This document shows positions 40,018 to 60,770 of a DNA stretch of 64,000 nucleotides, one piece after another. The stretch comes from Methylococcaceae bacterium TMED69 (lineage in GTDB: Bacteria > Pseudomonadota > Gammaproteobacteria > Ga0077536). Within the stretch, counting starts at the first letter, position 1, and every line of letters begins with the position of its first letter. Both the position numbers and the translations under genes were made by a program. The notes beneath the pieces are model-generated. The model was not told the origin of the DNA. It did not search any database and saw only the letters and a list, made by a program, of their open reading frames with translations. The stretch covers positions 395,673 through 459,672 of the forward strand of contig NHDW01000004.1 in the NCBI GenBank assembly GCA_002170535.1, in the 5' to 3' direction.

Positions 40018-40157
40018 ATAAAAAAAGATTCTCTTTTGTTTGATATTGGGAAAATGGGTGTGGAAGACAGATTAAAAAAATACAGACAGCGAGTTGAATT
40101 ACAACAAGCGGAATTGACATGTGTTCAATCCCGTGCGGCAACCGTGGAGCGGGTTTA

Positions 40158-41225
40158 ATGACCATTTTAGTTACTGGTGGTGCGGGTTTTATCGGTTCCA
40201 ATTTTGTTATCGACTGGCTAGCCGGAAGCGAGGAGCCAGTCATTAATCTGGATCTATTAACCTACGCCGGCAATTTAATAAATTTTGCGGCTCTTAAAAA
40301 TGATGATCGACATACCTTTGTGAATGGTGATATCGGTGATTCATCTCTAACTTTCCAGTTGCTTCAGCAGCATAATCCGCGTGCAGTAATTAATTTTGCA
40401 GCTGAGTCACATGTAGATCGCTCCATTCATGGTCCGGAAGATTTCATGCAGACCAACATTATTGGCACCTTTCGTTTATTGGAGTCCGTCCGAGGGTATT
40501 GGGGCGATCTGCCAGATGCTGAAAAGGCCAACTTTCGTTTCTTGCATGTATCTACAGACGAAGTGTATGGTTCGCTGGATGCCGATGCCCCTGCCTTTGT
40601 AGAAACTAACCGTTATGAACCTAACAGTCCTTACAGTGCCAGTAAAGCCGCGTCAGATCATATTGTTCGCGCCTATCATCACACCTATCGGCTGCCAGTA
40701 TTAACGACCAATTGTTCGAATAATTACGGGCCTTTTCAGTTTCCCGAAAAATTAATTCCGTTGATAATTCATAATGCTTTGGCTCATAAACCTCTGCCAA
40801 TCTACGGGGATGGCCTACAAATTCGAGATTGGCTTTATGTGGGTGACCACTGCAGTGCAATCCGAGCTGTATTGGCGAATGGTACCGTTGGCGAAGTTTA
40901 TAACATCGGTGGGCTAAATGAGATGACTAATATTGAGATAGTAAACAGACTTTGTGACATTCTTGATAAACTTCGGCCCATTTCTTCGGATGCATCAATT
41001 TGCAGTTATTGTGAACTTATCACCCATATCAAAGACCGACCGGGACACGATCGCCGTTACGCTATTGATGCCACCAAAATTGAATCCGCAATCGGGTGGC
41101 GCCCAGCGGAAACATTCGAAACCGGTATTCGAAAAACTGTCGAATGGTATCTGGATAATCAGGAATGGGTTGAACAAATTGTTACTGGCGGTTATCGTCG
41201 TTGGATCGAGAGGCAATACGCATGA
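40158..41225 (+). CDS. rfbB: dTDP-glucose 4,6-dehydratase
   Basis: The ATG at 40158 has a GGAG 8 nt upstream. It carries VTGGAGFIGSNF, YSASKAASDH (YxxxK) and the characteristic C-terminus. Confidence 0.96.
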   Translation: MTILVTGGAGFIGSNFVIDWLAGSEEPVINLDLLTYAGNLINFAALKNDDRHTFVNGDIGDSSLTFQLLQQHNPRAVINFAAESHVDRSIHGPEDFMQTNIIGTFRLLESVRGYWGDLPDAEKANFRFLHVSTDEVYGSLDADAPAFVETNRYEPNSPYSASKAASDHIVRAYHHTYRLPVLTTNCSNNYGPFQFPEKLIPLIIHNALAHKPLPIYGDGLQIRDWLYVGDHCSAIRAVLANGTVGEVYNIGGLNEMTNIEIVNRLCDILDKLRPISSDASICSYCELITHIKDRPGHDRRYAIDATKIESAIGWRPAETFETGIRKTVEWYLDNQEWVEQIVTGGYRRWIERQYA

Positions 41226-42121
41226 AGTTATTGCTTCTCGGTGCAAACGGGCAGCTGGGACAAGAGCTCCGCCGAGCACTTCCAGAAGTTGGCGAAGTTA
41301 AAGCTTGTGATCGGTACGAAGTCGACCTAACCGACACCCAATCCGTTCTTTTGGCTCTTGAAACATTTAATCCGGATATCGTTATCAATGCTGCGGCTTA
41401 TACTGCCGTTGACAAAGCTGAAACAAATTGCATTCAGGCATTTAGTGTAAACGCTGATGCAGTAAGGTTCTTGGCTAATGAAGTGGAGAAGAGAGGTATT
41501 TGGCTTATTCACTACTCTACTGATTATATTTTTGATGGACGAAAAGACGACGCCTATAGAGAAACAGATCCAACAAATCCGGTAAACGTTTATGGAGAAT
41601 CAAAACTTGCCGGGGAACAGGCCGTTATTGCGAAAGGTTCTAAATACCTTATTTTTCGTACTTCATGGGTAATTGGTAAAGATGGGAACAATTTTGCAAA
41701 AACAATCTTAAAACTAGCTAGCGGCCACGACACCCTAAATGTTATCAATGACCAGATTGGGGTGCCTACATCCCCAGCTCTAATTTCTAAAGTAACCGTA
41801 AGTGCAATCAATGCAATTAAAAATGGCGACGCATGGCTGGTCGGTATTTACCACTTAGCCCCCAAAGGAAAAACGACCTGGTTTGGTGTGGCAGAAGTGC
41901 TACTAGATATTGCGACCAATTCGAATATAGAGCTTTCAACAAGAACAACTCAGATAAAGGCAACCATAACAGCGGAGTATCCAACTGCTGCAAAGCGGCC
42001 ATTAAATTCATGTTTAAACACAGACAAATTGGCCGAATACCTTTCATTTGAATTACCACACTGGAAAGATGATTTTTTTGTTACCGCGAAATCGATCATC
42101 AAGGAATTTAAAGCAGTATGA
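41222..42121 (+). CDS. rfbD: dTDP-4-dehydrorhamnose reductase
   Basis: [16 protein letters not shown]..., with an ATGA overlap on rfb[10 protein letters not shown] is the YxxxK motif. Confidence 0.94.
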
Positions 42122-43008
42122 AACGAAAAGGTATTATCTTGGCTGGTGGATCTGGTACACGGCTTTACCCGGCCACAAAGGTCGTATCAAAACAGTTATT
42201 GCCTGTTTTCGATAAGCCAATGATCTATTACCCCTTAAGCACCCTCATGCTGGCAGATGTGCGTGAAATTTTGATTATTTCGACACCAAAGGACACGCCG
42301 CGTTTTGAAGAGCTTTTAGCTGATGGTAGTCAATGGGGATTGAAAATAGATTATGCGCAACAACCATCGCCCGATGGCTTAGCCCAGTCGTTAATAATTG
42401 GCGAAGAGTTTCTGGATGGGGCCCCTTCTATCCTGATTCTCGGTGACAACATTTTTTACGGCAACTCGCTACACGAAAAACTGGCATCGGCTAATCAGCG
42501 TCTGAGTGGCGCCACTATTTTTGCCTATCGTGTGCATGACCCTGAACGTTATGGCGTTGCTGAGTTTGATAAAAATGGGAAAGTTATAAGTTTGGAAGAG
42601 AAGCCAGCTGAACCCAACTCTAATTATGCGGTCACCGGTCTTTATTTTTATGATGAGCATGCACCGAAATATGCGAATCAAATTAGACCTTCTCATCGCG
42701 GTGAGTTAGAGATTACTGATCTTAATAAGATTTATTTGGAAAAAAGCCAGCTTTCAGTAGAGCGAATGAATAGAGGTTACGCGTGGCTAGATACTGGCAC
42801 TCATGAAAGCCTGATTGAAGCACACCAGTTTGTTCAAACAATAGAGCATCGTCAAGGCTTAAAAGTCGCCTGCCTAGAAGAGATAGCCTTCAGGCAGAAG
42901 TGGATAGATCAGCGTCAGTTAGAACTGTTAGCCCAACCTTTACTCAAGAATGGATATGGTAAATATTTACTCCAGGTTATTAGGGAATATGAGAATGAAA
43001 GCGATTGA
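42118..43008 (+). CDS. rfbA: Glucose-1-phosphate thymidylyltransferase
   Basis: It begins [16 protein letters not shown], and the remainder is typical of RmlA. Confidence 0.96.
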
Positions 43009-43543
43009 CACCAAAATTCCTGATGTGAAAATTATTGAACCGATGGTTTTTGAAGATGACCGTGGTTTCTTTTTTGAAAGTTTTAATCACAAAGAATTCG
43101 AAAAAGCTGTCGGAAAATCTGTCCAGTTCGTGCAAGACAATCACTCCAAGTCGACCAAGGGGGTATTACGCGGATTGCACTATCAGCTACCGCCACATGC
43201 GCAAGGTAAACTTATCCGTGTGGTACAGGGTGAAGTCTTTGACGTGGCAGTGGATATTCGCAAATCATCGCCTACCTTTGGTAAGTGGGTGGGAGAGCCA
43301 TTATCTGCCGCCAGTAAAAAACAATTCTGGATACCTGAAGGCTTTGCGCACGGTTTTATCACACTTTCTGAGTCAGCCGAGTTTTTGTACAAGACTTCGG
43401 ACTACTATGCTTCAAATTCAGAACGGTCTATTCGTTGGGATGATCCCAAAATAGCTATCGATTGGCCATTCGATATTGAGCCAATACTTTCATCTAAGGA
43501 CCTTAGAGCGGTTGATTTAAAAATCGCTGAGGTATTCGAATGA
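42995..43543 (+). CDS. rfbC: dTDP-4-dehydrorhamnose 3,5-epimerase
   Basis: [36 protein letters not shown] is a cupin-type RmlC. I chose the start at 42995. Confidence 0.94.
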
Positions 43544-45670: not shown

Positions 45671-45697
45671 AAGAGACGTTAAAAAAGAAGGTTGTCT

Positions 45698-46792
45698 ATG
45701 ACGTATGACGGAGTCAGGGTCGTCCGTTATGGTCCAGACGAAACCCGTGTAGGAACACCGTTTAATGAACAACCTGATGGTTCCTGTGCATTGTGGTTTG
45801 AGGTTGAGGGGCGAGACGATTGCCCTTTAGCTGTTGAATTTGACGGAGTGTTTTTGAAATCAGTTCGCTTAGGTTCTATGTTAACGGCATTACTACCGCA
45901 AAGTCTAATTGCAGTGCCGAGGGAGCTTAATATTCGGATATTCGATGAGACCAGGCCGGATAACCCTGTGTTACTTCACTTTTATGTGCTCGACCCAAGA
46001 GGTAAGAAGATTCGGGGTAAAGTTACAAATCCCGTTACTAAGGTCCCTATTCCCGGATTTTTCATAATTGGCCCACCCCGTAGTGGTACCACCTCTATAT
46101 ATTGGCGACTGCAGGCGCACCCTAGTGTTTATATGTCGCGAAATAAGGAACCATATTACTTCGACCCGCGAGCAGAGGGAGTGTTAAATGATGCTGTAAT
46201 AGATAGAGACGAATACTTGTCGCTGTTTCGGTTCGCGCCATTTCAGTCCAAGGTGGTCGGTGAAGCGTCCACAACTTATGCGAGCTCGCCTGAAGCTCTT
46301 CGCCGAATCCAAATATTTAACCCGCAGGCCAAGGCTTTGCTAATTTTAAGAAATCCGCTTACAGCCAGCGTATCTTTATACCTACAGCATCGGAAGGGTG
46401 GTCTGCATGAGCATGCGTCGAGTTTTCAGCAGGCTTGGAACGAATGTGAGAATGCACAAAACCGGCCCTTTATTTCTAATTATCGTAGTTTATATAAAAT
46501 TGGGGATCAGTTAGCTAGTGCCTCCAGGATTTTTGGAGAGCGCTTACATGTTATGTTATTCGATGATCTAGTGAACGACGGAACTTCGGTATATGCCGGC
46601 TTACTTCGCTTTTTAGGTTTACAAGTGGATTCTTTAGAGCAACTTGAGAAAACAAATAGCTCACAATTGGAAAATATTGAATCCATAGTTTCGCCTGAGC
46701 TACTCGATGAGATGACTGATTATTTTCTGCCGCAAATTCGATTAGTTTCCGAATTTATCGGCCGCGACTTGGGTCATTGGATTGCCAGATGA
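45698..46792 (+). CDS. Sulfotransferase with an N-terminal extra domain of about 125 aa
   Basis: The PAPS 5'-phosphosulfate loop IIGPPRSGTTS lies near 46070-46096, and a 3'-phosphate motif LILRNPLTASVS follows. The N-terminal beta-rich domain has no recognised family. Confidence 0.8.
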   Translation: MTYDGVRVVRYGPDETRVGTPFNEQPDGSCALWFEVEGRDDCPLAVEFDGVFLKSVRLGSMLTALLPQSLIAVPRELNIRIFDETRPDNPVLLHFYVLDPRGKKIRGKVTNPVTKVPIPGFFIIGPPRSGTTSIYWRLQAHPSVYMSRNKEPYYFDPRAEGVLNDAVIDRDEYLSLFRFAPFQSKVVGEASTTYASSPEALRRIQIFNPQAKALLILRNPLTASVSLYLQHRKGGLHEHASSFQQAWNECENAQNRPFISNYRSLYKIGDQLASASRIFGERLHVMLFDDLVNDGTSVYAGLLRFLGLQVDSLEQLEKTNSSQLENIESIVSPELLDEMTDYFLPQIRLVSEFIGRDLGHWIAR

Positions 46793-48969: not shown

Positions 48970-49037
48970 TCAGGATAAGAAAAATTCGTCGATAAAAAAA
49001 TCTGAAGTATGTGAGTCTATGGGATGCTAGATTGAGG

Positions 49038-50792
49038 ATGAAGATATTTGATTGTTTTACGTTCTATAATGAACTGGATCTTTTAGAGATTCGACTACAT
49101 CAGTTGTGGGATAAGGTAGATAGATTTGTAATTGTTGAGGGTGACCGAACTTATGCCGGTAAAGAAAAGGAATCGCAGTACCTCGAAAATCAAGAACGTT
49201 TTGCGTGGGCTTCATCTAAGATAATACACGTGATCGCCAGCCTGCAAGCAGAACCGAAGACTCGTTGGGTAAACGAGGCTATACAGAGAGACGCTATCAT
49301 GGAGGGTCTCGATTCGGCAACATCGGAAGATGTTATTTGCATTAGCTGCGTTGATGAAATTTATTCCAATTCAATTTTTTCAGATCTTAGAAATAATCTT
49401 ATTGAATTGCCTGTTCTAGTGGACTTAAAGTTATTTTATTTCTATCTAAATGGTCAATGCACGGGATCCGCAAGTGTATTTCCTTGTCCCGTGATTACTC
49501 GACGTGCGATGCTCGGCAGTTCAGTGCACGAATATTTTGATGACCGTTTCAACTATGAACGTTATTCGTTTGGTGGTTGGCATTTTTCTTTTTTAGGTGG
49601 GGCGCATTGTATTAAAGAGAAAATTGAGGCCTATTCACACCAGGAATATGACAATGATTTCTATAAAAGCGAGGAGAGGTTGGAGCAAGTAATTGCAAAT
49701 GGGGGTGACATTTTTGAACGAAAGGGGGTTGGCGAAGTTGAGTATGTTCAGTTAGACGATTCATTTCCTGATTACGTTTTACAGAATCTTGGTAAATATG
49801 CCCATTTGATCAAGCCGGTCGGACCTGGGTCCTCAGCAATATTCTACGAACATGTCGAGCGGGTTCGAAATTTTGTGCTATCGCAACAAGAACGTAGACA
49901 ACAAATGAGCGGGGAATGTGTCCCTTCCCGTTACTGGATGGACTTTGCACTCAATTTTCGCTATGTATACTCTCTTTCTCTTTCTGAAATCTTACGTATT
50001 CGTTTTCATACCTACCATCTTACTAGCGATTCCTATCTTTCCTATTATTTTGCAGGCGAGGACTACAAAGAGTTGCTTACTAGGGGTTATTGCTATTTCA
50101 TAGACAAAGGAGGGTTGACTCCTTACGATGAAGGCGAGAACGGAATTGGAGTTAAAACCCAATATGGCATAGTCAGCCACGATCTGCTGCGTTATCTCGG
50201 TGCACTCTGTGACATTAAAGAATGTGGTTTTTTTGACGTGACATCGCAATTGGTAGTTATGGAAATTGGTGGAGGATATGGCGGTTTGGCGCGTGCCCAC
50301 TTGATGCAGAACAACCAGCTTAGTTACGTGATTTGCGATCTTGAGGAGACATTGTTTTTTTCCTCGATTTATTTGGCACTCCATTTTGGAGTCGAGCGGG
50401 TGCATCTGGTTAATGAGCCGCTAATTCAAGCTGATCTTCAACCGGGGCATGTATACATTGTTGCTCAATCTCGAATAGAACTGTTGGCTGATATTGAATT
50501 AGACTATGTAATTAATCAGCAGTCGCTTCAAGAAATGACTCGCGATCAGGTAATTCGTTATTTGCAATGGATCCAGCACCATAGTAAGGGCTTTTACTCT
50601 TGTAATCTCAACGATCATGGCTGTATCGCAAATGAGAAAAGTATCGTAACTGATCTAATCGTTGAGCTTCAACATGAGTTTGGCGAGCCATTCTGGACCG
50701 CAGATACGCCTCAAGCAGAATACCGGTTTGGAGATAACCATCTACCGAGATTCGCTTATTACTGTAATAAATTCAGAGAATTAACCGAATGA
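49038..50792 (+). CDS. Bifunctional-looking protein: GT17-like glycosyltransferase domain fused to a SAM-methyltransferase-like domain
   Basis: The N-terminus MKIFDCFTFYNELDLLEIRLHQLWDKVDRFVIVEGDRTYAGKEK is the typical bacterial Glyco_transf_17 start. The C-terminal half has the motif VMEIGGGYGGLA. Confidence 0.7.
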   Translation: MKIFDCFTFYNELDLLEIRLHQLWDKVDRFVIVEGDRTYAGKEKESQYLENQERFAWASSKIIHVIASLQAEPKTRWVNEAIQRDAIMEGLDSATSEDVICISCVDEIYSNSIFSDLRNNLIELPVLVDLKLFYFYLNGQCTGSASVFPCPVITRRAMLGSSVHEYFDDRFNYERYSFGGWHFSFLGGAHCIKEKIEAYSHQEYDNDFYKSEERLEQVIANGGDIFERKGVGEVEYVQLDDSFPDYVLQNLGKYAHLIKPVGPGSSAIFYEHVERVRNFVLSQQERRQQMSGECVPSRYWMDFALNFRYVYSLSLSEILRIRFHTYHLTSDSYLSYYFAGEDYKELLTRGYCYFIDKGGLTPYDEGENGIGVKTQYGIVSHDLLRYLGALCDIKECGFFDVTSQLVVMEIGGGYGGLARAHLMQNNQLSYVICDLEETLFFSSIYLALHFGVERVHLVNEPLIQADLQPGHVYIVAQSRIELLADIELDYVINQQSLQEMTRDQVIRYLQWIQHHSKGFYSCNLNDHGCIANEKSIVTDLIVELQHEFGEPFWTADTPQAEYRFGDNHLPRFAYYCNKFRELTE

Positions 50793-50831: not shown

Positions 50832-53800
50832 ATGGAATTTAGAGAGTCAAAGTTGGATATTAATACGCCCACACAAATTATTTTCGATCAATACAGCCGC
50901 TACCTTGCCTGCAGCAAGCTACTTCAAAATGCTGGTCTGAATAAGGGTGCAAGCATGTTAGATGTCGGCAGTGGGCCCGAATGTCTATTTGGCTCCTTTT
51001 TGCCAGATATACAGATTACTTACCTTGACCCGCTAATTTCAGTCGAAGATGGACAACATATCAAAGGCGATATCTTTTCTGAACATCTAAATGATCTATC
51101 TTTTTCTGCTGTCGTCGCGGTAGATGTTCTTGAACACGTTCCTCCCGACAGGCGAAACGTATTTTTAAAGCGAGTTTCTGAACTTTCCTCTGATGTAATC
51201 GTCCTCGGGTTTCCAAATTCAGATACGCTTGACGCATCGCAGCTAGACCTCGCGTTAGAGCAACAATATCGAAATATTTATGGATCTGACTACTACTGGC
51301 TGCAGGAACATCACGAATATGGCCTACCATCGTTGAAAGATACACAAGCACAACTAGAACATCAAGGTTGGTATTGCCATTCGGTGGGACACGGTCATAC
51401 TCCTTGGCTACGCGAATTGTTAGGCTTCGTGATTTGTGCTTGGGACAACCCACTTTATAAAAATTTGATAGTATCGATTAGTGAACGATTCAACGAAATC
51501 CTCGCGCAATATGATTTTTCAGAACCCTCTTACAGGCAGTTTATCATCGCGACACGCCAACGTTCTGTTACCCGATTTCAGCCGTCTGATACGGCACAAA
51601 CTTTTGAAGAAGCGAATCGGTTATTTGATGAGTTGATGCAGTATGCACGAACAGAATTCTATAAGTTAGCATTACGCCCAATGGATGAAAATCCACCAAT
51701 TTATATGCAGTTATTAAAAGAGCGTACTCACGAGAGAGATCGCGCGCGAGAGGAAAGGGATAAAGCGCTAGTAGATCGAGCTTTATCAGAAGCGCGAGTT
51801 CAACAAGCATATAACAGTACCTCTTGGAGGCTTACTCGGCCTTTGCGGGTTGGTGCTCGTCTGGTGCGACATGGTCTTACCAAACAGGATCGACAAAAAC
51901 TTATTCAGGCGTTACGCAATCAATATCATAGCTTACCAATACCGAGGCTTATTAAAGGACTTGTAAGTAGAGTCTACCACCAGCAACTTTTGCGTAAATT
52001 TTTTGTAGGTGTTCATCGTAATTTAAGGTTTGAAAAAACATTTCAGTTGCCTGATGAAAAGCTAAAAAGTCAGCAATACGGCAAGCCGGATTATATAATC
52101 TGGGGCGTTATAGATTGGCATTTCCGACATCAGCGTCCTCAACAAATAGCATTGGCGCTGGCTGCAACGGGTCGGCGAGTGTTTTATATTTCTCCTTTAT
52201 TGGTTGATGATCAGTGTGCCGGTTTTGAAGTTGAGGCTTTGGACACATCGAAGCAGCTTTTCCAGATAAAGTTATTTGCTAATAATGCTCCCTCAATTTA
52301 CATGGACGAGCCAAATCTTGAAACCGCTGCTCAGCTCAAACAAAGCCTTGGTGAGGTTTTGAATTGGACAGAAAGCAAACAAATTAATTCACTTGTTGAT
52401 CATCCCTTCTGGCTTGATATCGCTGTTGTGGTGCCTAACAGTCGTCTCATTTATGACTGCATGGATCATCATGCGGGCTTTGGCAGTATCTCAGATTCAT
52501 TGTTACAGCTGGAAAAACGGTTGCTTGCTGAAGCGGAACTAGCCATTTGTACATCCTCGTGGTTGAAAGAGTCTGTCTCTCCCCATGCCAAACAGACGAT
52601 ACTGATTCGTAATGCTGCTGACTATGTGCATTTTTCTTACGCATATCCATATCGCGATCCAAAGGGTCGACGTATCATTGGGTACTATGGGGCGATTGCC
52701 GAGTGGTTTGATCTGGATCTTATTGAGGCTGTTGCGATACAGCACCCAGATTGTTGTGTACTGTTGGTTGGGTCAGATACTGTTGATGCTAGCTCAAGGC
52801 TGTCAAAGTTTAAAAATATTACCTTTTTGGGCGAGGTGCCCTACGAGGAATTACCCTATTATTTACACGGATTCGATGTATGTCTGCTGCCATTCAAAGT
52901 TACCCCATTAACTCTTGCAACTAACCCAGTCAAGATTTATGAATACATGTGTGCTGGTAAGCCGGTGGTGGCCGTTGACTTGCCTGAAATGGCGCAATTT
53001 GAGGGCTTGGTTTATTCAGTTACCGGTAAAGACGCTTTTTTAGACTCTTTAAAAAATGTTTTGAGTCAACCGGAACCCGAAGACCTAATCTGGAAGCGCA
53101 GGGCATTTGCACAGCACCAAACCTGGCGAGATCGTACTGAAACATTGATTAAAAATGCTGAGTCAAGCAACCGGGACCCCAGAGTGAGTGTTATTGTTGT
53201 AACCTACAATAACCTGAACCTAACCAAAGAATGTCTTTCAAGTTTGGAACTTCATAGTCAGTACCAAAATCTTGAAATTATTGTTGTGGATAATGCGTCA
53301 AAAGATGGAACTCTAGCTTACCTCAATAGTTGGGTTATGCGTAACAAAAAAAATAGCCTTATCTTGAATAGTGAAAATCGAGGCTTTGCGGCTGCAAACA
53401 ATCAAGGATTGGAGGTCGCAACAGGCGACTATCTGGTACTACTTAATAACGATACATATGTAACTCTTGGTTGGATTCGAACTCTAATTAGACATATCGA
53501 AACTGATAAGAACATCGGCCTTATTGGTCCTGTTACAAATAATATTGGCAATGAGGCTAGAGTTAATATTGACTATGGAAATATGGATGAAATGCAGGTC
53601 AAGTCATTAGCTTATACACGTAGGCACATCGGTCAAACATATCCATTGAGAACAGCCGCGTTTTTCTGCGTAATGATGCCGAGGTCAACCTACGAAAGAG
53701 TAGGACCATTGGATGAAGCCTTTGGTCGAGGCTTCTTTGAGGATGATGACTACTGCCGCCGAGTAGAGCAACTCGGTCTGCGAATTGTCTGCGCCGAAGA

Positions 53801-54776
53801 TGTATTTATTCATCACCATCTATCAGCGTCGTTTGATCAATTAAAGCAACATGAGCGCCAAAAGTTATTTGAAAAAAATAAAGCAATCTATGAAGCCAAG
53901 TGGGGAGAATGGGTGCCACATGGGTATCGAGATCCGGAACCAGTTAATCAAGATGAAATGTTTAGTCTTCCTGCAGTATTTCAGAGTCAAAAATATTTTG
54001 CAGGGACTTGTATTGCTTGTGGTAAGTCTGCTCGTTTTTTTTATCAAGATGTATCGCTCTGGCGGGAGTCATTGATTTGCGAACATTGCTACACAACGAG
54101 TCGTTATCGGTCGATTGCTCGAGGGCTTTTGCTCGCAATAAATGAACTGACGGGCATTGAGGCATCCTCGCTATCGATACTTCCTCGTGCTCACGATAAG
54201 CGACTAAGCGTCTACGATACGCAACCTCCCTTTTACTTTGGCTCTTGCTCTTACCCGTTACCTGAACTATTAAAAACAACTAAATGGATTGATGTCAAAT
54301 TATCACAATACCGTTCCGATAAAAAGCTTGGAAAGAGATTGTCAAAAGGCGTAACAAATCAAAATTTAGAATGCCTCACTTTCCCCGATGCTTCTCTAGA
54401 TATTATAATTACCAGTGATGTTATGGAACATGTCCGCCTCGATGATCGTGCACATCGTGAGATTTATCGAGTTTTAAAACCAGGAGGCATATATCTCTTC
54501 ACCGTTCCCCATGACCGGTCATGGGAAAATACCGTTACTCGTGTGCAGATTACCGATCCAGGTGATCCTGCTAAAGATATCCACCTTCTCGAACCAGAAT
54601 ATCATGGGGATACTAATAGTCCTGAGGGCACCGGTGTGCTCGCATATCGTGCTTATGGAAGAGACCTTGAAGTTTTTTTGGCTGAGATTGGCTTTGAAGT
54701 TATTTATGAACGAGAAGATTATAAGTCGTTGGGAATAATGAATACCGAATTATATTTTTGTCGTAAGCAAGTGTAA
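50832..54776 (+). CDS. 1314-aa multidomain glycan-assembly enzyme: MTase / charged helical linker / GT-B (GT4-like) / GT2 / Zn-ribbon + MTase
   Basis: MTase 1 is marked by MLDVGSGPE...VDVLEHV. The linker is ERTHERDRAREERDKALVDRALSEARV followed by SWRLTRPLR (51822-51848). The GT-B part starts near 52089 and contains NPVKIYEYMCAGKPVV. The GT2 part starts near 53181 (VSVIVVTYNN...VVDNASKDGT...LLNNDT...EDDDY). The CIACG...CEHC ribbon starts at 54009, and MTase 2 is marked by ITSDVMEHV...LKPGGIYLF. Confidence 0.85.
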   Translation: MEFRESKLDINTPTQIIFDQYSRYLACSKLLQNAGLNKGASMLDVGSGPECLFGSFLPDIQITYLDPLISVEDGQHIKGDIFSEHLNDLSFSAVVAVDVLEHVPPDRRNVFLKRVSELSSDVIVLGFPNSDTLDASQLDLALEQQYRNIYGSDYYWLQEHHEYGLPSLKDTQAQLEHQGWYCHSVGHGHTPWLRELLGFVICAWDNPLYKNLIVSISERFNEILAQYDFSEPSYRQFIIATRQRSVTRFQPSDTAQTFEEANRLFDELMQYARTEFYKLALRPMDENPPIYMQLLKERTHERDRAREERDKALVDRALSEARVQQAYNSTSWRLTRPLRVGARLVRHGLTKQDRQKLIQALRNQYHSLPIPRLIKGLVSRVYHQQLLRKFFVGVHRNLRFEKTFQLPDEKLKSQQYGKPDYIIWGVIDWHFRHQRPQQIALALAATGRRVFYISPLLVDDQCAGFEVEALDTSKQLFQIKLFANNAPSIYMDEPNLETAAQLKQSLGEVLNWTESKQINSLVDHPFWLDIAVVVPNSRLIYDCMDHHAGFGSISDSLLQLEKRLLAEAELAICTSSWLKESVSPHAKQTILIRNAADYVHFSYAYPYRDPKGRRIIGYYGAIAEWFDLDLIEAVAIQHPDCCVLLVGSDTVDASSRLSKFKNITFLGEVPYEELPYYLHGFDVCLLPFKVTPLTLATNPVKIYEYMCAGKPVVAVDLPEMAQFEGLVYSVTGKDAFLDSLKNVLSQPEPEDLIWKRRAFAQHQTWRDRTETLIKNAESSNRDPRVSVIVVTYNNLNLTKECLSSLELHSQYQNLEIIVVDNASKDGTLAYLNSWVMRNKKNSLILNSENRGFAAANNQGLEVATGDYLVLLNNDTYVTLGWIRTLIRHIETDKNIGLIGPVTNNIGNEARVNIDYGNMDEMQVKSLAYTRRHIGQTYPLRTAAFFCVMMPRSTYERVGPLDEAFGRGFFEDDDYCRRVEQLGLRIVCAEDVFIHHHLSASFDQLKQHERQKLFEKNKAIYEAKWGEWVPHGYRDPEPVNQDEMFSLPAVFQSQKYFAGTCIACGKSARFFYQDVSLWRESLICEHCYTTSRYRSIARGLLLAINELTGIEASSLSILPRAHDKRLSVYDTQPPFYFGSCSYPLPELLKTTKWIDVKLSQYRSDKKLGKRLSKGVTNQNLECLTFPDASLDIIITSDVMEHVRLDDRAHREIYRVLKPGGIYLFTVPHDRSWENTVTRVQITDPGDPAKDIHLLEPEYHGDTNSPEGTGVLAYRAYGRDLEVFLAEIGFEVIYEREDYKSLGIMNTELYFCRKQV

Positions 54777-57262
54777 TGCTTAATCGACCTGTAGCCAAAA
54801 CTCCTTCTACTTTCTTGACTTCAAAACTCATTGGTTTGTTATTAGCTATCTGTGCCGTCATAACAACATGGGGTTTTTTGCAAACAACCCCATTACTCAT
54901 TTCCTCTGTTGGCTGGGAGCGTTTGCATCAGTACGTAATTTTCTTGATGGGCGGCGCATCTGCGTTACTGTTTGGTGGATTTATAGTGAATCAGATATCA
55001 AAACAGTTCAATTTAAATATTTATGCTATTGGAGTGGGTATTGCTAGTACCGTTGTAATCCTTGCTGGTGCGATTTGGCCTGTATTTGTAACAATATGGA
55101 TCGCTATTGCCAGCTATCTGCTTGGTATATCTTTTCTTCGGCTGCTTCGCACTAACGTCACTAAAGTAACAGGTACTTCCGCATTTTTAGTAGGTGCGTG
55201 TCTTTACGGAACTGTAGTCGGTCTGGCAGCGCATTATCCTATCAATTATCCCGGAGTATATGGTGTTGCACTAACAGTGCCTGTGCTGCTGGGCTGGCGC
55301 TTAATACTTTCAGCGATTCAATCGCTTCATAAGCATCTAAATGCGTCAGCTGAAACAAAATATTTGGACTTAGCTATTGTATTAATTGGCCTAGTTCATT
55401 TCACAGTATCTCTTATGCCAGAGGTTGGACACGACGCGCTAGCCATGCATCTTTTTATTCCAGGACATTTAGTCTTGCGGCATGAGTGGGGTTTTAATGC
55501 AGAGACTTATGTTTGGGCTGTTATGCCAGCACTCGGCGACTGGCTCTTTTCTCTTGGTTATATGTTGGCGGGTGAGCAAGCTGCACGTCTAATAAATGTT
55601 GGGTTCATTTTCATCTTAAGCTGGTTGATTCGTGATCTTGCATTGTGGGCTGGGGCAGGAGAGAAAGCAGCACGATGGTCAGTGCTCTTATTTCTAAGCA
55701 CTCCGTTGACTTTTACTGAAAGCAGCAGTTTGTTTATTGAAGGCATCTGGGCCGCGTTTATTGTCGGAGGTTCACTGAGCGTATTTAAGATAGGGCAGTC
55801 AAATGGCGAACGAGCAATTAATATTCTTCTAGCCGGTATTTTTCTGGGTGGCGCACTTGCTGCGAAGGCGGTAACTTTTACAATCTTGCCCGCGCTGTTC
55901 ATAGTATTGGTATGGCATTGTCGGTTATGGGTCAAGTCTGAGTTAACAGGTGCCATATTGTTAGGTTTAGCTCTGCTTATGACTATCGGTTCAATTCCTT
56001 ACATGACCGCTTGGTATTTAACAGGGAATCCGGTTTTCCCATTTTTCAATCATATTTTTCAATCCTCCCTTTATCCTGCGGTAGCCTTCGATCAATCAGG
56101 AATCTTTGCTAAAGGTTTAACTTGGGATGTGTTGTATCAAGTAACGTTTCATTCACAGAAATTCTTAGAAAGCAGAATGGGTGCAGCGGGTTTTCAGTGG
56201 ATCTTACTGTTTGTACCTGCCTTACTGACCCTCCTGGCCATTCGCCAGCGCAGGGGATTTATTTTATTTTCGGTCGCAATGCTATCCGTCGCGTTAACTT
56301 TTCAGTCGACGGCTTATTTGCGATATATCTTTCCTGCTTTCGCTTGGGTTGCTGCAGGCGTAGGTGTAGCGCTGTCAGTTTGGGATACTGATTCCGTTAG
56401 ACTCAAAAGATTTGTATATTTTATTATGTGGTCGGTAATTCTGTTAAATATTGTGTTTTTTAAATCCGGCACTAGTTTTGGTCAATTATCAGTTCAGCCT
56501 TTGGCGAGTAAATTGGGGCGAGAAGTTTATCTTAATAGCAGAGTGCCTATCAGAAATGCAGTTGAGTTAGTGAATAAACTCAATCCCTCAGGTTCACCCG
56601 TCGTAGTGTTTTCATCTCCCTTAGCCGCAGGACTGAATTCAGATGCCCTTTATCCCAATTGGTATAATCATCGTTTTCAAAGGAGAGTTTCTGAAACAAA
56701 AACTTCAGAGGATATCGCGCAGCTTATGATGGAGTATGGTTCTGACTATGTTATTCTTGACGACTATTGGGCGACAATTGAGAAACGTGAACTGATTGAA
56801 AACGCAACACAAAAAATTATTAAGATTAACAATATTGCTGTGCGCAAATTAAATAGCTCCTATCGATTTCAAACCGAACTATTAAAAAATTCTGATTTTT
56901 CTAGTTTGGATGGCTGGAAGCTTTCAGCTGGCGCTAAACTAAATGAGGCGTCAGGACAGATTGAAGTATCTGTGTCGGTTCCCGCATCTCAAACTGTGGT
57001 AGTGCAGCCTGGACGTCACTATCAAAATAGCGTGACAGCAAAGTGTGGCAGTCAGCCAAGTCAAGGTAGAGTACAGGTTAATTGGTTAGATTCAAAAAGC
57101 AGATTCATATCCACGGATATATATGTCTTTGAATGTACACCCTCTGAAACTACTCAAATTATTGAAACCGTCGCGCCACGGAACGCAACATTTGGAACTG
57201 TTTATGCCACCGGTCATACTGATACCCCCATCCTCATCACTGAGGTTTCTCTAAAACAATGA
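54776..57262 (+). CDS. Large polytopic membrane protein (GT-C-like) with a C-terminal soluble beta-rich, CBM-like domain
   Basis: 828 aa. I read more than 10 hydrophobic helices in the first 560 aa or so. A soluble region follows, and the last 125 aa or so (about 56873-57259) look like a jelly-roll. The start overlaps the upstream stop (TAATG). Confidence 0.7.
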   Translation: MLNRPVAKTPSTFLTSKLIGLLLAICAVITTWGFLQTTPLLISSVGWERLHQYVIFLMGGASALLFGGFIVNQISKQFNLNIYAIGVGIASTVVILAGAIWPVFVTIWIAIASYLLGISFLRLLRTNVTKVTGTSAFLVGACLYGTVVGLAAHYPINYPGVYGVALTVPVLLGWRLILSAIQSLHKHLNASAETKYLDLAIVLIGLVHFTVSLMPEVGHDALAMHLFIPGHLVLRHEWGFNAETYVWAVMPALGDWLFSLGYMLAGEQAARLINVGFIFILSWLIRDLALWAGAGEKAARWSVLLFLSTPLTFTESSSLFIEGIWAAFIVGGSLSVFKIGQSNGERAINILLAGIFLGGALAAKAVTFTILPALFIVLVWHCRLWVKSELTGAILLGLALLMTIGSIPYMTAWYLTGNPVFPFFNHIFQSSLYPAVAFDQSGIFAKGLTWDVLYQVTFHSQKFLESRMGAAGFQWILLFVPALLTLLAIRQRRGFILFSVAMLSVALTFQSTAYLRYIFPAFAWVAAGVGVALSVWDTDSVRLKRFVYFIMWSVILLNIVFFKSGTSFGQLSVQPLASKLGREVYLNSRVPIRNAVELVNKLNPSGSPVVVFSSPLAAGLNSDALYPNWYNHRFQRRVSETKTSEDIAQLMMEYGSDYVILDDYWATIEKRELIENATQKIIKINNIAVRKLNSSYRFQTELLKNSDFSSLDGWKLSAGAKLNEASGQIEVSVSVPASQTVVVQPGRHYQNSVTAKCGSQPSQGRVQVNWLDSKSRFISTDIYVFECTPSETTQIIETVAPRNATFGTVYATGHTDTPILITEVSLKQ

Positions 57263-58278
57263 CTAAAAACTTAACTGATAATTTATTTCAGGATGTTCAA
57301 GTAGCTGTTGTTATTCCTTGCTTTAAAGTAACTAAGCAAATTGTTAATGTTATCTCTGCTATTCCTTCCGGCGTTTGGCGCATTTATGTCATCGATGATG
57401 CATGTCCGGATGGCTCGGGTAAAATGGTAAACAAAAATGTGACTGACCCAAGAGCGAAAGTTATATTCCATAGCAAAAATTTAGGCGTTGGTGGCGCTGT
57501 GATTACCGGGTATAAGGCTGCTATTTTCGACGGAGCGGATGTAATCGTAAAAGTTGATGGTGATGGTCAGATGGATCCGTTGCTTATCCCCGATTTTATT
57601 TCTCCTATTATTATAGGTGAAGCTGATTATACAAAAGGGAATCGGTTTTTTGATCTCGAGGAGATTCGTATTATGCCAAAATTGCGTTTATTTGGTAACG
57701 CGGTGCTGTCATTGATGGCAAAGTTATCAACTGGCTATTGGAATTTATTCGACCCTACTAATGGCTTTACCGCAATTCATGCCGACGTTGCCAAGCAACT
57801 GCCGTTTGCAAAAATTAGTGAGCGCTACTTTTTCGAAACAGACATTCTTTTTCGTCTCAACACATTACGGGCAGTCGTCATTGATGTTCCAATGAGTGCG
57901 AAATATGGAGAAGAAGTAAGCAATATTAAGATATCGAATATCATAGGTGAATTCCTATTTAAACATATCCGGAATTTTTTTAAGCGTATTTTTTATAACT
58001 ATTATCTGCGTGACTTGTCGTTAGCATCAATTGAGTTACCGTTAGGTGTTTTGTTGTTCCTATTTGGCGCAGGTTTTGGAGGTTATAGTTGGTATGACTC
58101 GGCACGCGTCAACGAGGTGACGCCTGCAGGCACTGTTATGTTAGCGGCACTTCCTATACTAATGGGATTGCAACTAATATTGGCATTTTTAGGTAACGAC
58201 ATTGCTTCGATACCGCGCAGGCCCAGACAGAAAATGTTCCGGCAACTTAGCTCGTACAACAAAGGTAAAAATAAGTGA
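57259..58278 (+). CDS. GT2 polyprenyl-phosphate glycosyltransferase (GtrB/ArnC/DPM1-like) with C-terminal TM helices
   Basis: It carries VAVVIPCFKV, VIDDACPDGSG and VKVDGDGQMDP, and has two C-terminal hydrophobic helices. Confidence 0.85.
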   Translation: MTKNLTDNLFQDVQVAVVIPCFKVTKQIVNVISAIPSGVWRIYVIDDACPDGSGKMVNKNVTDPRAKVIFHSKNLGVGGAVITGYKAAIFDGADVIVKVDGDGQMDPLLIPDFISPIIIGEADYTKGNRFFDLEEIRIMPKLRLFGNAVLSLMAKLSTGYWNLFDPTNGFTAIHADVAKQLPFAKISERYFFETDILFRLNTLRAVVIDVPMSAKYGEEVSNIKISNIIGEFLFKHIRNFFKRIFYNYYLRDLSLASIELPLGVLLFLFGAGFGGYSWYDSARVNEVTPAGTVMLAALPILMGLQLILAFLGNDIASIPRRPRQKMFRQLSSYNKGKNK

Positions 58279-58350
58279 GATTACTTAATATGTTTTTATT
58301 GACGTATTGCATTCAGGCAAGTTGAGGCGGGTCTACGGAGTCGCCACTGT

Positions 58351-58761
58351 ATGAACCAGAAAAAAATTAAACCCATAGAATTAGCCTCTTATATAGGCAT
58401 TCAGGGCTTAGCGTTTGCTTTGGACAACATTATTTTCTTTTCCGTCCTTGCCTTAGGTTTGACCGGTTCACTCGTGGTTGCGTTGGGTGTTGCCCGCACC
58501 ATAAGTTCGATATTCGCGTTTCTTATGCACGCGCAGTTTACTTTTCCGCAGAAAAAAAAGCGAGGATTAAAGGCTCAACTCACAAGCTTTTATGCAATGA
58601 TTTTAGTTCATTTTTTTTTTACGGCACTATGTTTACAACTCCTGACCCAAATCGGTTGGAGCCCCCTATTTGCAAAGATCATAATCGACATACTGGGTGC
58701 TCTTTTGGTATATTTAGCTATGAAATTCGTAACCTTCCTGCCTGCGGACTGGGCATCATAA
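58351..58761 (+). CDS. GtrA-family small membrane protein (candidate polyprenyl-P-sugar flippase)
   Basis: 136 aa with four predicted TM helices and a GtrA-like motif FAFLMHAQFTF. It lies next to the GtrB-like GT2. Confidence 0.75.
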   Translation: MNQKKIKPIELASYIGIQGLAFALDNIIFFSVLALGLTGSLVVALGVARTISSIFAFLMHAQFTFPQKKKRGLKAQLTSFYAMILVHFFFTALCLQLLTQIGWSPLFAKIIIDILGALLVYLAMKFVTFLPADWAS

Positions 58762-58797: not shown

Positions 58798-59565
58798 ATG
58801 AAAGTAGTAATTTTAGCTGGCGGACGGGGGACCCGAATTCGTGAAGTATCTAACGATAAACCGAAACCGATGGTTGAAATTGACGATCGTCCGATAATTT
58901 GGCACATCATGGCATCCTACGCTCGGTTCGGGCTTAAAGATTTCATTGTCTGCCTTGGTTACAAAGGACATATGATCGCTGATTATTTTCGGAATTACAG
59001 AGAGCGAAATTCAGATCTGATAGTCGATCTGGGCTCTGAGAAAGTATCATTCGTAAACCCCTGCGAAGAAGATTGGAAAATTACCCTCGTGCAGACTGGT
59101 CTTAACACAATGACCGGTGGACGTATTAAGAGAGTAGCAAAGTACCTTGACGATGATGATTTTTGTTTGACTTATGGCGATGCTGTAAGCGATGTGGATA
59201 TTCCTTCATTAATAGAACAGCACAATTCCTCTGGTTCGAAGGCAAGCGTTACCGCTGTAAGGCCAGTTGGTAGGTTTGGGCTTCTGAGCCTTGGTCCAAA
59301 CAATAGAGTGTCATCATTTATGGAAAAGCCTGAAGCGGAGGACGGCTGGATAAACGGGGGTTTTTTTGTTCTAAAACAGTCGGTGATTGACTATATCGGT
59401 GGTGATCAGACCATTTGGGAGCGCGATCCTTTGGAACGTTTGGCTGCAGAGAACGAACTCAGCGTTTACCTGCACAACAATTTCTGGCAGTGCATGGACA
59501 CTTATCGTGATTGGGAACTCTTGAACAAAATGTGCGAAAATCAACATCGACCGTGGCTAGGTTAG
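58798..59565 (+). CDS. rfbF: Glucose-1-phosphate cytidylyltransferase
   Basis: MKVVILAGGRGTRIREVSNDKPKPMVEIDDRPIIWHIM is the canonical RfbF/DdhA N-terminus. The protein is 255 aa. Confidence 0.93.
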   Translation: MKVVILAGGRGTRIREVSNDKPKPMVEIDDRPIIWHIMASYARFGLKDFIVCLGYKGHMIADYFRNYRERNSDLIVDLGSEKVSFVNPCEEDWKITLVQTGLNTMTGGRIKRVAKYLDDDDFCLTYGDAVSDVDIPSLIEQHNSSGSKASVTAVRPVGRFGLLSLGPNNRVSSFMEKPEAEDGWINGGFFVLKQSVIDYIGGDQTIWERDPLERLAAENELSVYLHNNFWQCMDTYRDWELLNKMCENQHRPWLG

Positions 59566-59566
59566 C

Positions 59567-60652
59567 ATGGCTATAAATTCTGATTTTTGGAGGGCCAAAT
59601 CAGTTTTTGTTACGGGCCATACCGGCTTTAAAGGAAGTTGGTTAACTATTTGGCTCGCGAAAATGGGAGCCAACGTTCACGGCTACGCGCTTTCTCCTGA
59701 GCAGCCAAAAAGCTTGTTTGATCAAGCAAATGTGAACAGCTATCTTTCGTCACATACAATTGGTGACGTGGTCGATAGATTAAAATTGGCACAATGCATT
59801 AAGACTAGTGACCCAGATGTTATTTTTCACCTTGCGGCCCAACCACTCGTATTAGAATCGTACACCAATCCTGTCAAAACATTTGAGGTCAACATTCAAG
59901 GCACCGTCAATTTGCTAGATATTAGCCGCAATCTTTCTAAGCAGTGTGCAATTATTGTAGTCACATCGGATAAATGTTATGAAAACAATGAATGGGAATG
60001 GCCATATCGCGAGGTCGATCGTTTGGGAGGCTCCGACCCATATAGCAACAGCAAGGCATGTGCCGAACTCGTAGTAAGCTCATTCAGAAAGTCTTATTTT
60101 TCTAAGCTTGAAAGTAGTGCGCCCTGGCACGGGCTGGCTACTGCAAGGGCCGGTAATGTGATTGGTGGCTGCGATTGGGCGCGGCACAGGCTTATACCAG
60201 ATTTTTTTCGTTCCCTTGAAGAAAAATCCCCACTGCAAGTAAGAAACCCGACCGCGACGCGCCCTTGGCAGAATATTCTGGAATGTCTAGGAGGGTACTT
60301 ATTGCTTGCCGAAAAACTTTATGATTCGCCTGAGCAGTATTCGAATGCTTGGAATTTTGGACCATTACCGCAACAAAATCTTTCCGTACAGCAACTGATA
60401 GATACACTAAATCAACTTTGTGAATCGAAGGCGGACATTTCTTATCAGCCTCTCATTCATGGGAGCGAGCATCAACAATTGGCTCTCGATATTAGCAAGG
60501 CCAATCTAAAATTGGGATGGTACCCTATTTGGAAAATCGAAGACACTTTAGAAGCACTGGTGGCTTGTTACTTAGCTGGTGACGACGAGGTTGAGCTTAG
60601 TTCCCTTATCGATCAACAAATTAATTTCCATGCTAAACTTTCGGTTAAATAA
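59567..60652 (+). CDS. rfbG: CDP-glucose 4,6-dehydratase
   Basis: 361 aa with VTGHTGFKGSWL and YSNSKACAEL (YxxxK). It immediately follows rfbF. Confidence 0.92.
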   Translation: MAINSDFWRAKSVFVTGHTGFKGSWLTIWLAKMGANVHGYALSPEQPKSLFDQANVNSYLSSHTIGDVVDRLKLAQCIKTSDPDVIFHLAAQPLVLESYTNPVKTFEVNIQGTVNLLDISRNLSKQCAIIVVTSDKCYENNEWEWPYREVDRLGGSDPYSNSKACAELVVSSFRKSYFSKLESSAPWHGLATARAGNVIGGCDWARHRLIPDFFRSLEEKSPLQVRNPTATRPWQNILECLGGYLLLAEKLYDSPEQYSNAWNFGPLPQQNLSVQQLIDTLNQLCESKADISYQPLIHGSEHQQLALDISKANLKLGWYPIWKIEDTLEALVACYLAGDDEVELSSLIDQQINFHAKLSVK

Positions 60653-60665
60653 TAAGGAGTAGTAG

Positions 60666-60770
60666 ATGCAACAACGAAGACTTCCGAGTAAAATGAGAGA
60701 CGAAGTTGGGGCTTTATTTATTGAATACTATGAGGCCGCACATCTCCAACAACTCCTTCCGATCAGATGA
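60666..60770 (+). CDS. 34-codon small ORF, possibly the 5' remnant of an rfbH-type gene
   Basis: AAGGAG lies 6 nt upstream of the ATG at 60666. The stop TGA overlaps the ATG of the next gene (GATGA). The peptide is MQQRRLPSKMRDEVGALFIEYYEAAHLQQLLPIR. It is too short for the ORF track. Confidence 0.3.
   Translation: MQQRRLPSKMRDEVGALFIEYYEAAHLQQLLPIR

Follow-up and report, generated by a model that had tools for sequence, protein, structure and literature searches.

What would a bacterium make with one protein that joins a methyltransferase (MTase) domain, a charged helical linker, two glycosyltransferase (GT) modules and a further MTase-like domain? The question is raised by an open reading frame (ORF) in a 64,000-nucleotide stretch of Methylococcaceae bacterium TMED69 (contig NHDW01000004.1, positions 395,673 to 459,672 of the forward strand), the whole of which is called the window below. 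We read the product of this ORF, the target protein, as the combined chain terminator, spacer and polymerase of a capped-glycan assembly pathway that depends on an ATP-binding cassette (ABC) transporter, and we put the probability of this reading at roughly 0.7; the glycan is most likely a lipopolysaccharide O-antigen. This is the best-supported reading because wzm and a wzt encoding a carbohydrate-binding module (CBM) lie upstream, the family has a heptad spacer of variable length, terminator and polymerase are split between genes in some relatives, and CBM type co-varies with the N-terminal MTase. An earlier note on this DNA had proposed that polymerisation, termination and possibly length control were united in one protein of an ABC-transporter O-antigen system, and that proposal is partly supported.

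The ORF runs on the + strand from an ATG at 50832 to a TAA at 54776 (50832-54776), and its stop codon shares bases with the ATG that opens the following gene (TAATG). It encodes 1314 amino acids (aa) with zero internal stops, and no transmembrane segment was predicted in the 1314-aa protein, which we take to be soluble or peripheral to the membrane. From the N to the C terminus its parts are a class I S-adenosylmethionine (SAM)-MTase domain (N-MT), charged helices with the motif SWRLTRPLR, a GT-B/GT4 module, a GT-A/GT2 module, a four-cysteine (Cys4) ribbon and a second MTase-fold domain (ZnMT):

50877..51566, + strand: N-MT, class I SAM-MTase domain (aa 16-245), from AlphaFold2 (AF2) fold, Foldseek and invariant motifs
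51603..51812, + strand: variable helical spacer (aa 258-281 and 288-327), from AF2 helices; counterpart of the heptad-repeat coiled coil of homologues
51819..52025, + strand: basic helical module opening with SWRLTRPLR (aa 330-398), of fixed length in homologues and amphipathic
52089..53156, + strand: GT-B/GT4-like module (aa 420-775), first half of the polymerase, from Pfam, NCBIfam, AF2 and Foldseek
53178..53921, + strand: GT-A/GT2 module (aa 783-1030), second half of the polymerase, from Pfam, PDB sequence search and Foldseek
54003..54101, + strand: Cys4 ribbon (C1060, C1063, C1083, C1086), from invariant cysteines
54102..54773, + strand: ZnMT, divergent MTase-fold domain (aa 1091-1314), from Pfam, AF2 and hhalign

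The single polypeptide and the domain order given in the earlier note both stand: the ORF is intact, and Pfam, AF2 and Foldseek agree. Homologues were sought across 5.8 billion proteins, where dozens were found at 50-66% identity spanning 99% of the query length, and architectures were counted on the 120 homologues listed:

30 of 120: the same five parts
20 of 120: the five parts with an extra N-terminal domain
21 of 120: N-MT through GT2, ZnMT absent
33 of 120: another N-terminal module on the same core, ZnMT present
13 of 120: core and ZnMT only
3 of 120: other architecture

The five-part arrangement, whose recurrence the earlier note had left to be surveyed, is thus found repeatedly. That the long ORF is an artefact, with separate genes fused by a frameshift or misassembly, has a negligible probability. 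It would fit the fact that the same modules are encoded by separate genes in other genomes; however, N-MT through ZnMT lies in one ORF in 50 of the 120 clusters of homologues, which stem from independent assemblies, the 90%-identity cluster of the target holds 1314-aa sequences from several sources (NCBI, ENA and Logan), and a near-identical contig preserves the gene order. The check for a joining artefact was therefore negative, and we rejected this explanation. The 90% cluster also holds a fragment from a 'Pseudomonadota bacterium', which together with Methylobacter/Methylicorpusculum at ~60% identity makes up the closest named relatives; RecA is recorded in Tara samples as well, and this suggests that the source is marine. 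On the near-identical contig, from a public metagenome (L103; MDSV01066529.1, 1-3396), the genes are ordered as in the window, with identities of 97% for a C-methyltransferase, 85% for a GT17-like gene and 86% for the start of the target, so this type of locus is also present in a close relative.

For the N-MT, Pfam gave a sub-threshold match to Methyltransf_23 over aa 21-117 (E 8.6e-4, with the N-terminal 300 aa scanned) and a PDB sequence search with this region gave no meaningful match, so that assignment of its fold required AF2 together with Foldseek. With 39 homologues as input, AF2 modelled aa 1-420 at pLDDT 87 and placed a Rossmann-like fold at aa 18-241. Foldseek against the PDB returned 635 matches at E<=1e-3, and essentially all of the top 50 are SAM-dependent or putative MTases, with the sugar O-methyltransferases RebM and AtmM among them. 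Invariant in the 39 homologues are motif I LDVGSGPE (aa 43-50, with G46 and G48), D66 and DVLEH (aa 98-102, with D98, E101 and H102). The domain thus combines the Rossmann-like fold, the glycine-rich motif I and the acidic residue ending beta2 that mark class I SAM-MTases, in line with the class given to it in the earlier note. A kinase domain was detected by neither Pfam nor NCBIfam, and the ~245-aa N-terminal module runs straight into helices. At E<=1e-10 the N-MT family comprises 825 clusters (50% identity), and its position is almost always N-terminal with a charged helix next. Among 144 newly listed top representatives, 89 are 300-700 aa long, and a rough filter on composition flags a charged helical segment in 109.

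Family profiles and folds agree for both GT modules. The GT4 module matched Glyco_trans_1_4 and Glycos_transf_1 in Pfam above threshold (aa 610-747) and a TuaH-like model in NCBIfam (aa 512-773), and its Foldseek matches include MshA, PimB', sucrose-phosphate synthase and the mycobacterial methylmannose-polysaccharide mannosyltransferase (ManT). The GT2 module matched Glycos_transf_2 in Pfam at aa 786-956 (E 5.7e-28), chondroitin synthase and PcManGT in the PDB sequence search, and GT-A structures including the O-polysaccharide fucosyltransferase WrtF in Foldseek; it carries the motifs NNDT (aa 872-875) and FEDDDYC (aa 969-975). An AF2 model of aa 400-1314 (915 aa, pLDDT 86) shows a GT-B domain, a GT-A domain, a small beta-ribbon with four cysteines and a final alpha/beta domain. 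The GT-B (GT4-like) and GT2 pair of the earlier note is therefore upheld by Pfam, PDB sequence search and Foldseek alike.

Between the N-MT and the polymerase, AF2 places helices at aa 258-281, 288-327 (Glu/Arg-rich), 330-347, 351-367 and 372-398, with SWRLTRPLR at aa 331-339 inside helix 330-347. The distance from the N-MT to this SWR motif ranges from 115 to 287 aa across 39 homologues and is 145 aa in the target; the stretch from the motif to the start of the GT4 module has a fixed length of 96 aa, with a range of 77-102 across 79 homologues. The spacers of homologues are tandem heptads, such as QKDNEIT 12 times, EKDAALA 9 times, and ERDAAVS or ERDTAIA 4-6 times. These arrays are near-perfect, and their copy number varies among close relatives (P0105, P0111, P0010, P0016); they look as if repeats had been gained and lost, and a change in heptad copy number could tune chain length quickly. 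The target has a short spacer, a single 40-residue charged helix with a weak heptad pattern (0.5 of the a/d positions hydrophobic even counting Ala), so the label 'coiled coil' rests on the homologues, and an oligomeric coiled coil and a ruler role are putative for the target spacer. The Glu/Arg-rich linker ending in SWRLTRPLR that the earlier note described was thus located as helices and motif, with a heptad pattern that proved weak. Helix 330-347 is strongly amphipathic and cationic (hydrophobic moment muH 0.62, net charge +5), and we infer that the SWR module is a candidate membrane-interface and docking element. Natural gene splits occur on both sides of the SWR motif, and some polymerases begin at it.

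The four cysteines of the ribbon (C1060 and C1063 in CIAC, C1083 and C1086 in CEHC), picked out in the earlier note, do not vary in any of 51 fused or 44 stand-alone homologues, and the ribbon is a putative zinc-binding element. The ZnMT matches Methyltransf_11 in Pfam at aa 1162-1223 (52.7 bits, cut-off 21.2; only profile positions 33-95), and its strand order in the AF2 model fits a Rossmann-like fold. A PDB profile search found MTase matches over beta4-beta5 only, and hhalign against canonical MTase domains aligned the ZnMT from beta2 onward. In Foldseek, the 915-aa C-terminal model returned a list dominated by GT matches, with nothing specific to the ZnMT. The domain is without the glycine-rich motif I and the beta2 acid: beta1 is followed by VYDTQPPFY (44 homologues), and at beta2, where the ribose-binding acid would normally sit, the residue varies among K, E, V, R and Q (44 homologues). 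The ZnMT is therefore MTase-like by fold, with a putative catalytic activity, and the 'second class I MTase' of the earlier note holds for the fold and the Methyltransf_11 match and not for the canonical SAM-binding motifs. It also occurs in stand-alone proteins of ~215-420 aa from distant phyla (435 matches, 53-77% identity), and two of three stand-alone genes inspected sit among GT genes. The ZnMT is an optional accessory module, possibly for in-chain O-methylation; more speculatively, it could have been repurposed as an acceptor- or product-binding clamp, a counter of in-chain modifications or a catalyst with an unusual cofactor mode.

The GT4-GT2 core is widespread, being present in at least 585 genomes in a scan with one genome per species, including those of Pseudomonas, Rhodanobacter, Stenotrophomonas, Lysobacter, Janthinobacterium, Cupriavidus, Paraburkholderia, Nitrosomonas and Nitrospira. 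Among the 80 related genome loci kept for neighbourhood counts, 63 have a wzt match within the flank, the wzm-wzt pair usually lying ~3 kb upstream on the same strand, and the polymerase ORF typically begins right after wzt. A C-terminal extension of at least 150 aa is carried by 57 of the 63 flanking Wzt proteins, as counted from the listing.

What stands in front of the core varies. N-terminal regions were grouped by community detection with heptad segments masked; unmasked single-linkage clustering had merged nearly all of them through low-complexity heptads. A target-type N-MT occupies this N-terminal slot in 69 of 166 proteins. The alternatives are other class I MTase subfamilies, a sulfotransferase (~20), DUF4915 (~16) and a GT17-like domain with an MTase (at least 9), and rarer modules are GT4, GT2 with Methyltransf_24, and a deacetylase with GT2. 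In P0027-P0029 and L020 the GT17-like domain stands N-terminal in a fusion with N-MT-spacer-GT4-GT2, and in L010 its fusion partner is another MTase. Sulfotransferases fill the slot of the same polymerase core in Dyella, Rhodanobacter, Luteimonas and others, and they stand beside split N-MT and polymerase genes at L086 6588-7427 and L087 7872-8726, with L022 8678-9718 also listed; their presence in the terminator slot suggests sulfate-capped glycans, a prediction from domain content. In Cupriavidus gilardii (L071 7409-9709) the slot holds a hexapeptide acyltransferase, a Capsule_synth (KpsC/S-like) domain and a long coiled coil. A pyruvyl-transferase fused to GT1 and GT2 modules was observed in a member of the Acidobacteriia (L083 4127-8983), with a stand-alone ZnMT two genes downstream. 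These two proteins thus carry other terminator candidates on polymerases of the GT4-GT2 type.

In the split forms, terminator and polymerase are encoded side by side. One locus (L087) reads wzm, wzt (with Wzt_C), sulfotransferase, a 330-aa N-MT and heptad protein that stops ~15 aa past SWKLTRPFR, and GT4-GT2-ZnMT; in two others (L086 and L088) a 529-aa protein of MT, N-MT, heptads and SWR motif lies directly upstream of GT4-GT2-ZnMT. The split N-MT and spacer proteins (330 and 529 aa) thus end ~15-20 aa after the SWR motif.

The transporter genes of the window provided a means of asking which domain caps the chain:

43540-44370, + strand: wzm, ABC-2 permease (Pfam ABC2_membrane)
44318-45670, + strand: wzt, ATPase with a C-terminal Wzt_C CBM (Pfam ABC_tran, Wzt_C)

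The CBM spans aa 296-430 of the window Wzt (45.7 bits against a Pfam cut-off of 30.4), and the nucleotide-binding domain matches Aquifex Wzt structures at E 1e-68. We called a Wzt CBM 'window-like' when it matched the window CBM by tblastn at E<1e-5. Of the 30 N-MT loci with a Wzt, 22 have such a CBM (genomes contribute 4 of 6, and a metagenome scan seeded with the N-MT contributes 18 of 24), against 2 of 56 loci without an N-MT; Fisher's test on nearly identical earlier counts (22/7 vs 2/56), with kinship ignored, gave p ~1e-12. The association persists at ~35% GT-module identity and without the ZnMT. Because the type of Wzt CBM follows the N-MT and not the ZnMT, the N-MT is likely the cap enzyme, a predicted chain-terminating O-methyltransferase. 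The layout with a terminator at the distal end is present in the target, with the N-MT at aa 18-241, helices at aa 258-398 and then GT4 and GT2, the N-MT being the presumed terminator.

The roles of the two MTase-type domains might be reversed, with the ZnMT making the terminating cap and the N-MT decorating the chain or the adaptor region. The strong conservation of the ZnMT, at 53-77% identity even in stand-alone proteins from distant phyla, and the 13 of 120 homologues made of core and ZnMT with no N-terminal module would fit this arrangement. However, in all three 'core + ZnMT only' loci examined a separate N-MT and spacer gene lies directly upstream, which together with the CBM type following the N-MT and the absence of canonical SAM motifs from the ZnMT makes a reversal quite unlikely. 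Less likely still, neither MTase would terminate, both being in-chain decorators of a glycan whose length is set by the balance of polymerisation and export, as in the Klebsiella O2a type. The short, weakly heptad spacer of the target is consistent with this, and the four MTase-type domains in the cluster (the two of the target, one NanM-like and one TylC3-type) suggest a heavily methylated polymer; yet Wzt carries a CBM, a feature that marks cap-dependent export, the type of this CBM co-varies with the N-MT, and the spacer varies in length across a family in which everything else is fixed.

Several points weigh against reading the target as a terminator, spacer and polymerase in one. Besides the missing motif I and beta2 acid of the ZnMT and the short, weakly heptad spacer, 8 of the 30 N-MT loci have no window-like CBM, and the co-variation test ignores shared ancestry. 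A literature search found no glycan structure or biochemistry for any family member. Two other genes of the locus are further cap-making candidates, one at 45692 (a sulfotransferase) and one at 49011 (a GT17-NanM-like MTase), so the real cap may be composite.

Under our preferred reading, for which we infer the substrates, capping chemistry, ruler function and membrane association, the GT4 and GT2 modules would take turns in lengthening a chain linked to undecaprenyl diphosphate on the cytoplasmic side of the membrane, with donors that probably include dTDP-L-rhamnose. The basic SWR helices beside the GT4 module would hold the enzyme at the membrane and join it to the spacer. The N-MT at the far end of the spacer would O-methylate the non-reducing terminal sugar when the growing chain reaches it, and this methyl cap would stop extension and form the epitope for the CBM of Wzt, which would then export the chain. 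The ZnMT, next to the polymerase, would most likely modify in-chain residues if its putative activity is real.

The capped-glycan strategy of a coiled-coil terminator combined with a Wzt CBM is known from WbdD/WbdA (E. coli O9a/O8), WbbB (Klebsiella O12) and Klebsiella O4/O7 (2024; PMC11231755). The target works like these terminator-ruler-polymerases and yet stands outside their sequence families, because it has no kinase, no detectable WbdD similarity and no GT99 domain, and its polymerase is GT4 plus GT2. One of the closest characterised systems is ORF6 of K. pneumoniae O7 (Kelly et al. 2024; PMC11231755), with the order MTase-kinase-CBM-coiled coil-GT2-GT2. Compared by description, ORF6 shares with the target a single polypeptide in which an N-terminal MTase is followed by a helical spacer in the middle and by two polymerising GT modules at the C-terminal end, and a locus with rml genes, wzm and wzt; it differs in the kinase and Ig-like CBM between MTase and coiled coil, in its methyl-phosphate cap, in having GT2 for both GT modules and in lacking a C-terminal MTase-like domain. 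WbbB of K. pneumoniae O12/Raoultella terrigena, as far as the cited account describes it, likewise unites a terminator, a coiled-coil ruler and a two-module polymerase (PMC11231755), whereas its terminator is a GT99 beta-Kdo transferase and its polymerase is GT102 plus GT103, not GT4 plus GT2. Membership of the WbbB family was rejected, the N-terminal domain of the target having an MTase fold and not GT99.

WbdD, which works with WbdA in E. coli O9a/O8 and K. pneumoniae O3/O5, has an N-terminal MTase on a coiled-coil protein and makes a methyl-containing cap; its membrane-proximal region recruits the polymerase and the Wzt CBM reads the cap, as we propose for the target. The two-protein layout of WbdD/WbdA matches the split forms (L086-L088), whereas in the target terminator and polymerase are fused and a kinase domain is absent. 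No WbdD chain appeared in the PDB sequence search (E<=10) or among the top 50 Foldseek matches, and with no kinase and no detectable homology to WbdD, membership of that family was rejected too. WsaE, from the S-layer glycan pathway of Geobacillus stearothermophilus NRS 2004/3a, has the order MTase-GT-GT and adds a 2-O-methyl cap to a rhamnan (PMC2943079). Like the target, WsaE joins an O-methyltransferase at the N terminus to two GT (rhamnosyltransferase) domains, and its gene lies right after wzm-wzt; unlike the target, it has no C-terminal MTase-like domain and serves a Gram-positive S-layer glycan pathway. The MT of E. coli O101/O162 pairs an MTase domain at its N terminus with a coiled coil at its C terminus and is needed for an O-methylation read as terminal capping (PMC13168486), and in the TET operon of P. 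syringae the genes for GT and O-methyltransferase are fused in some isolates (PMC7820976). The O101/O162 and TET systems, likened here to the N-MT by description, each have an MTase-only terminator, a separate protein in most strains. The suggestion in the earlier note that the architecture lies outside described examples does not hold, with O7 ORF6 and WsaE already MTase-(linker)-GT-GT and GT and O-methyltransferase fused in certain isolates of P. syringae.

The terminator-spacer-polymerase design is thus already known, and the target reveals no new principle. What it adds is the placing of a large enzyme family (at least 585 species) in the terminator-ruler-polymerase framework, and it draws attention to three features: a Cys4 MTase-like domain with non-canonical SAM motifs, a fixed SWR module and a short, weakly heptad spacer. 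Work on O-antigen chain length and on glycoengineering may find the survey useful for its conserved core, fixed SWR module and variable heptads, and for an inventory of about ten alternative N-terminal cap modules whose type the Wzt CBM tracks, including predicted non-methyl caps (sulfotransferase, DUF4915). The 2019 terminator census by Mann, Kimber and Whitfield in Glycobiology reportedly predicted many further terminator chemistries. A bolder proposal, which we regard as speculative and on balance doubtful, is that the ZnMT is a repurposed domain and the family as a whole a natural plug-and-play capping system, in which one conserved GT4-GT2 polymerase and a heptad array of changing copy number are combined with an exchangeable cap enzyme (methyl, predicted sulfate, DUF4915, GT17 or Kdo-transferase-like); were this true, the ruler model could be tested directly and new cap chemistries could be discovered.

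The target lies in a same-strand gene cluster downstream of recA, alaS and an aspartokinase gene, whose members other than wzm, wzt and the target are:

38643, + strand: GT4 gene, start of the cluster
40119..43543, + strand: rmlB, rmlD, rmlA and rmlC, dTDP-L-rhamnose pathway (Pfam)
45692..46792, + strand: sulfotransferase directly 3' of wzt (Pfam Sulfotransfer_3, Sulfotransfer_1), with an extra ~110-aa N-terminal segment
46853, + strand: short-chain dehydrogenase/reductase (SDR) family gene
47698 (region to 48969), + strand: TylC3-type C-methyltransferase (Methyltransf_13/23/14)
49011..50792, + strand: fusion of a GT17-like glycosyltransferase and a NanM-like sugar O-methyltransferase (Pfam, TIGR04371)
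54776, + strand: 828-aa polytopic GT-C-like protein, with at least 12 hydrophobic segments and a ~260-aa soluble C-terminal domain
57259, + strand: GtrB-like GT2 with two C-terminal transmembrane segments
58351, + strand: GtrA
58798-61720, + strand: nucleotidyltransferase, 4,6-dehydratase and epimerase
61717-63330, + strand: 537-aa polytopic membrane protein, end of the cluster, with no Pfam or NCBIfam match

In the fusion protein, the GT17-like part covers aa 7-236 (Pfam Glyco_transf_17, E 2.8e-28) and the NanM-like part aa 391-532 (TIGR04371, 84 bits, cut-off 44); the best-known example of GT17 is the eukaryotic GlcNAc-transferase III. This protein, the sulfotransferase or both might add a terminal residue or sulfate that the N-MT then methylates. 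Such a composite cap would parallel the methyl-phosphate cap that a kinase and an MTase make in E. coli O9a and Klebsiella O7. It would also fit the GT17-like domain fused right before the N-MT in at least nine homologues, the NanM-like MTase just upstream of the N-MT in several metagenome loci and the sulfotransferase that recurs beside wzt and N-MT genes (the window, L086 and L087). Most N-MT loci, however, have no GT17 or sulfotransferase match, no kinase-like domain lies between N-MT and spacer, and a methyl sulfate ester is in our judgement chemically implausible as a stable cap. We therefore consider a composite cap unlikely, and capping by the N-MT itself is preferred.

The rmlBDAC genes probably supply dTDP-L-rhamnose as a donor for the glycan, and the C-methyltransferase, the SDR gene and the nucleotidyltransferase, 4,6-dehydratase and epimerase genes together suggest a branched-chain (C-methyl) 6-deoxyhexose in it. 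The 537-aa membrane protein could function as a ligase, an acyltransferase or a further transferase of the GT-C type. Right after the target, the 828-aa protein, which had no Pfam or NCBIfam match, forms with the GtrB-like protein and GtrA a three-component set for periplasmic glycan modification (54776-58761). Homologues of the 828-aa protein, at 40-62% identity, trail the polymerase gene at L001, L006, L008, L009, L020, L097 and L101 and at several Pseudomonas loci.

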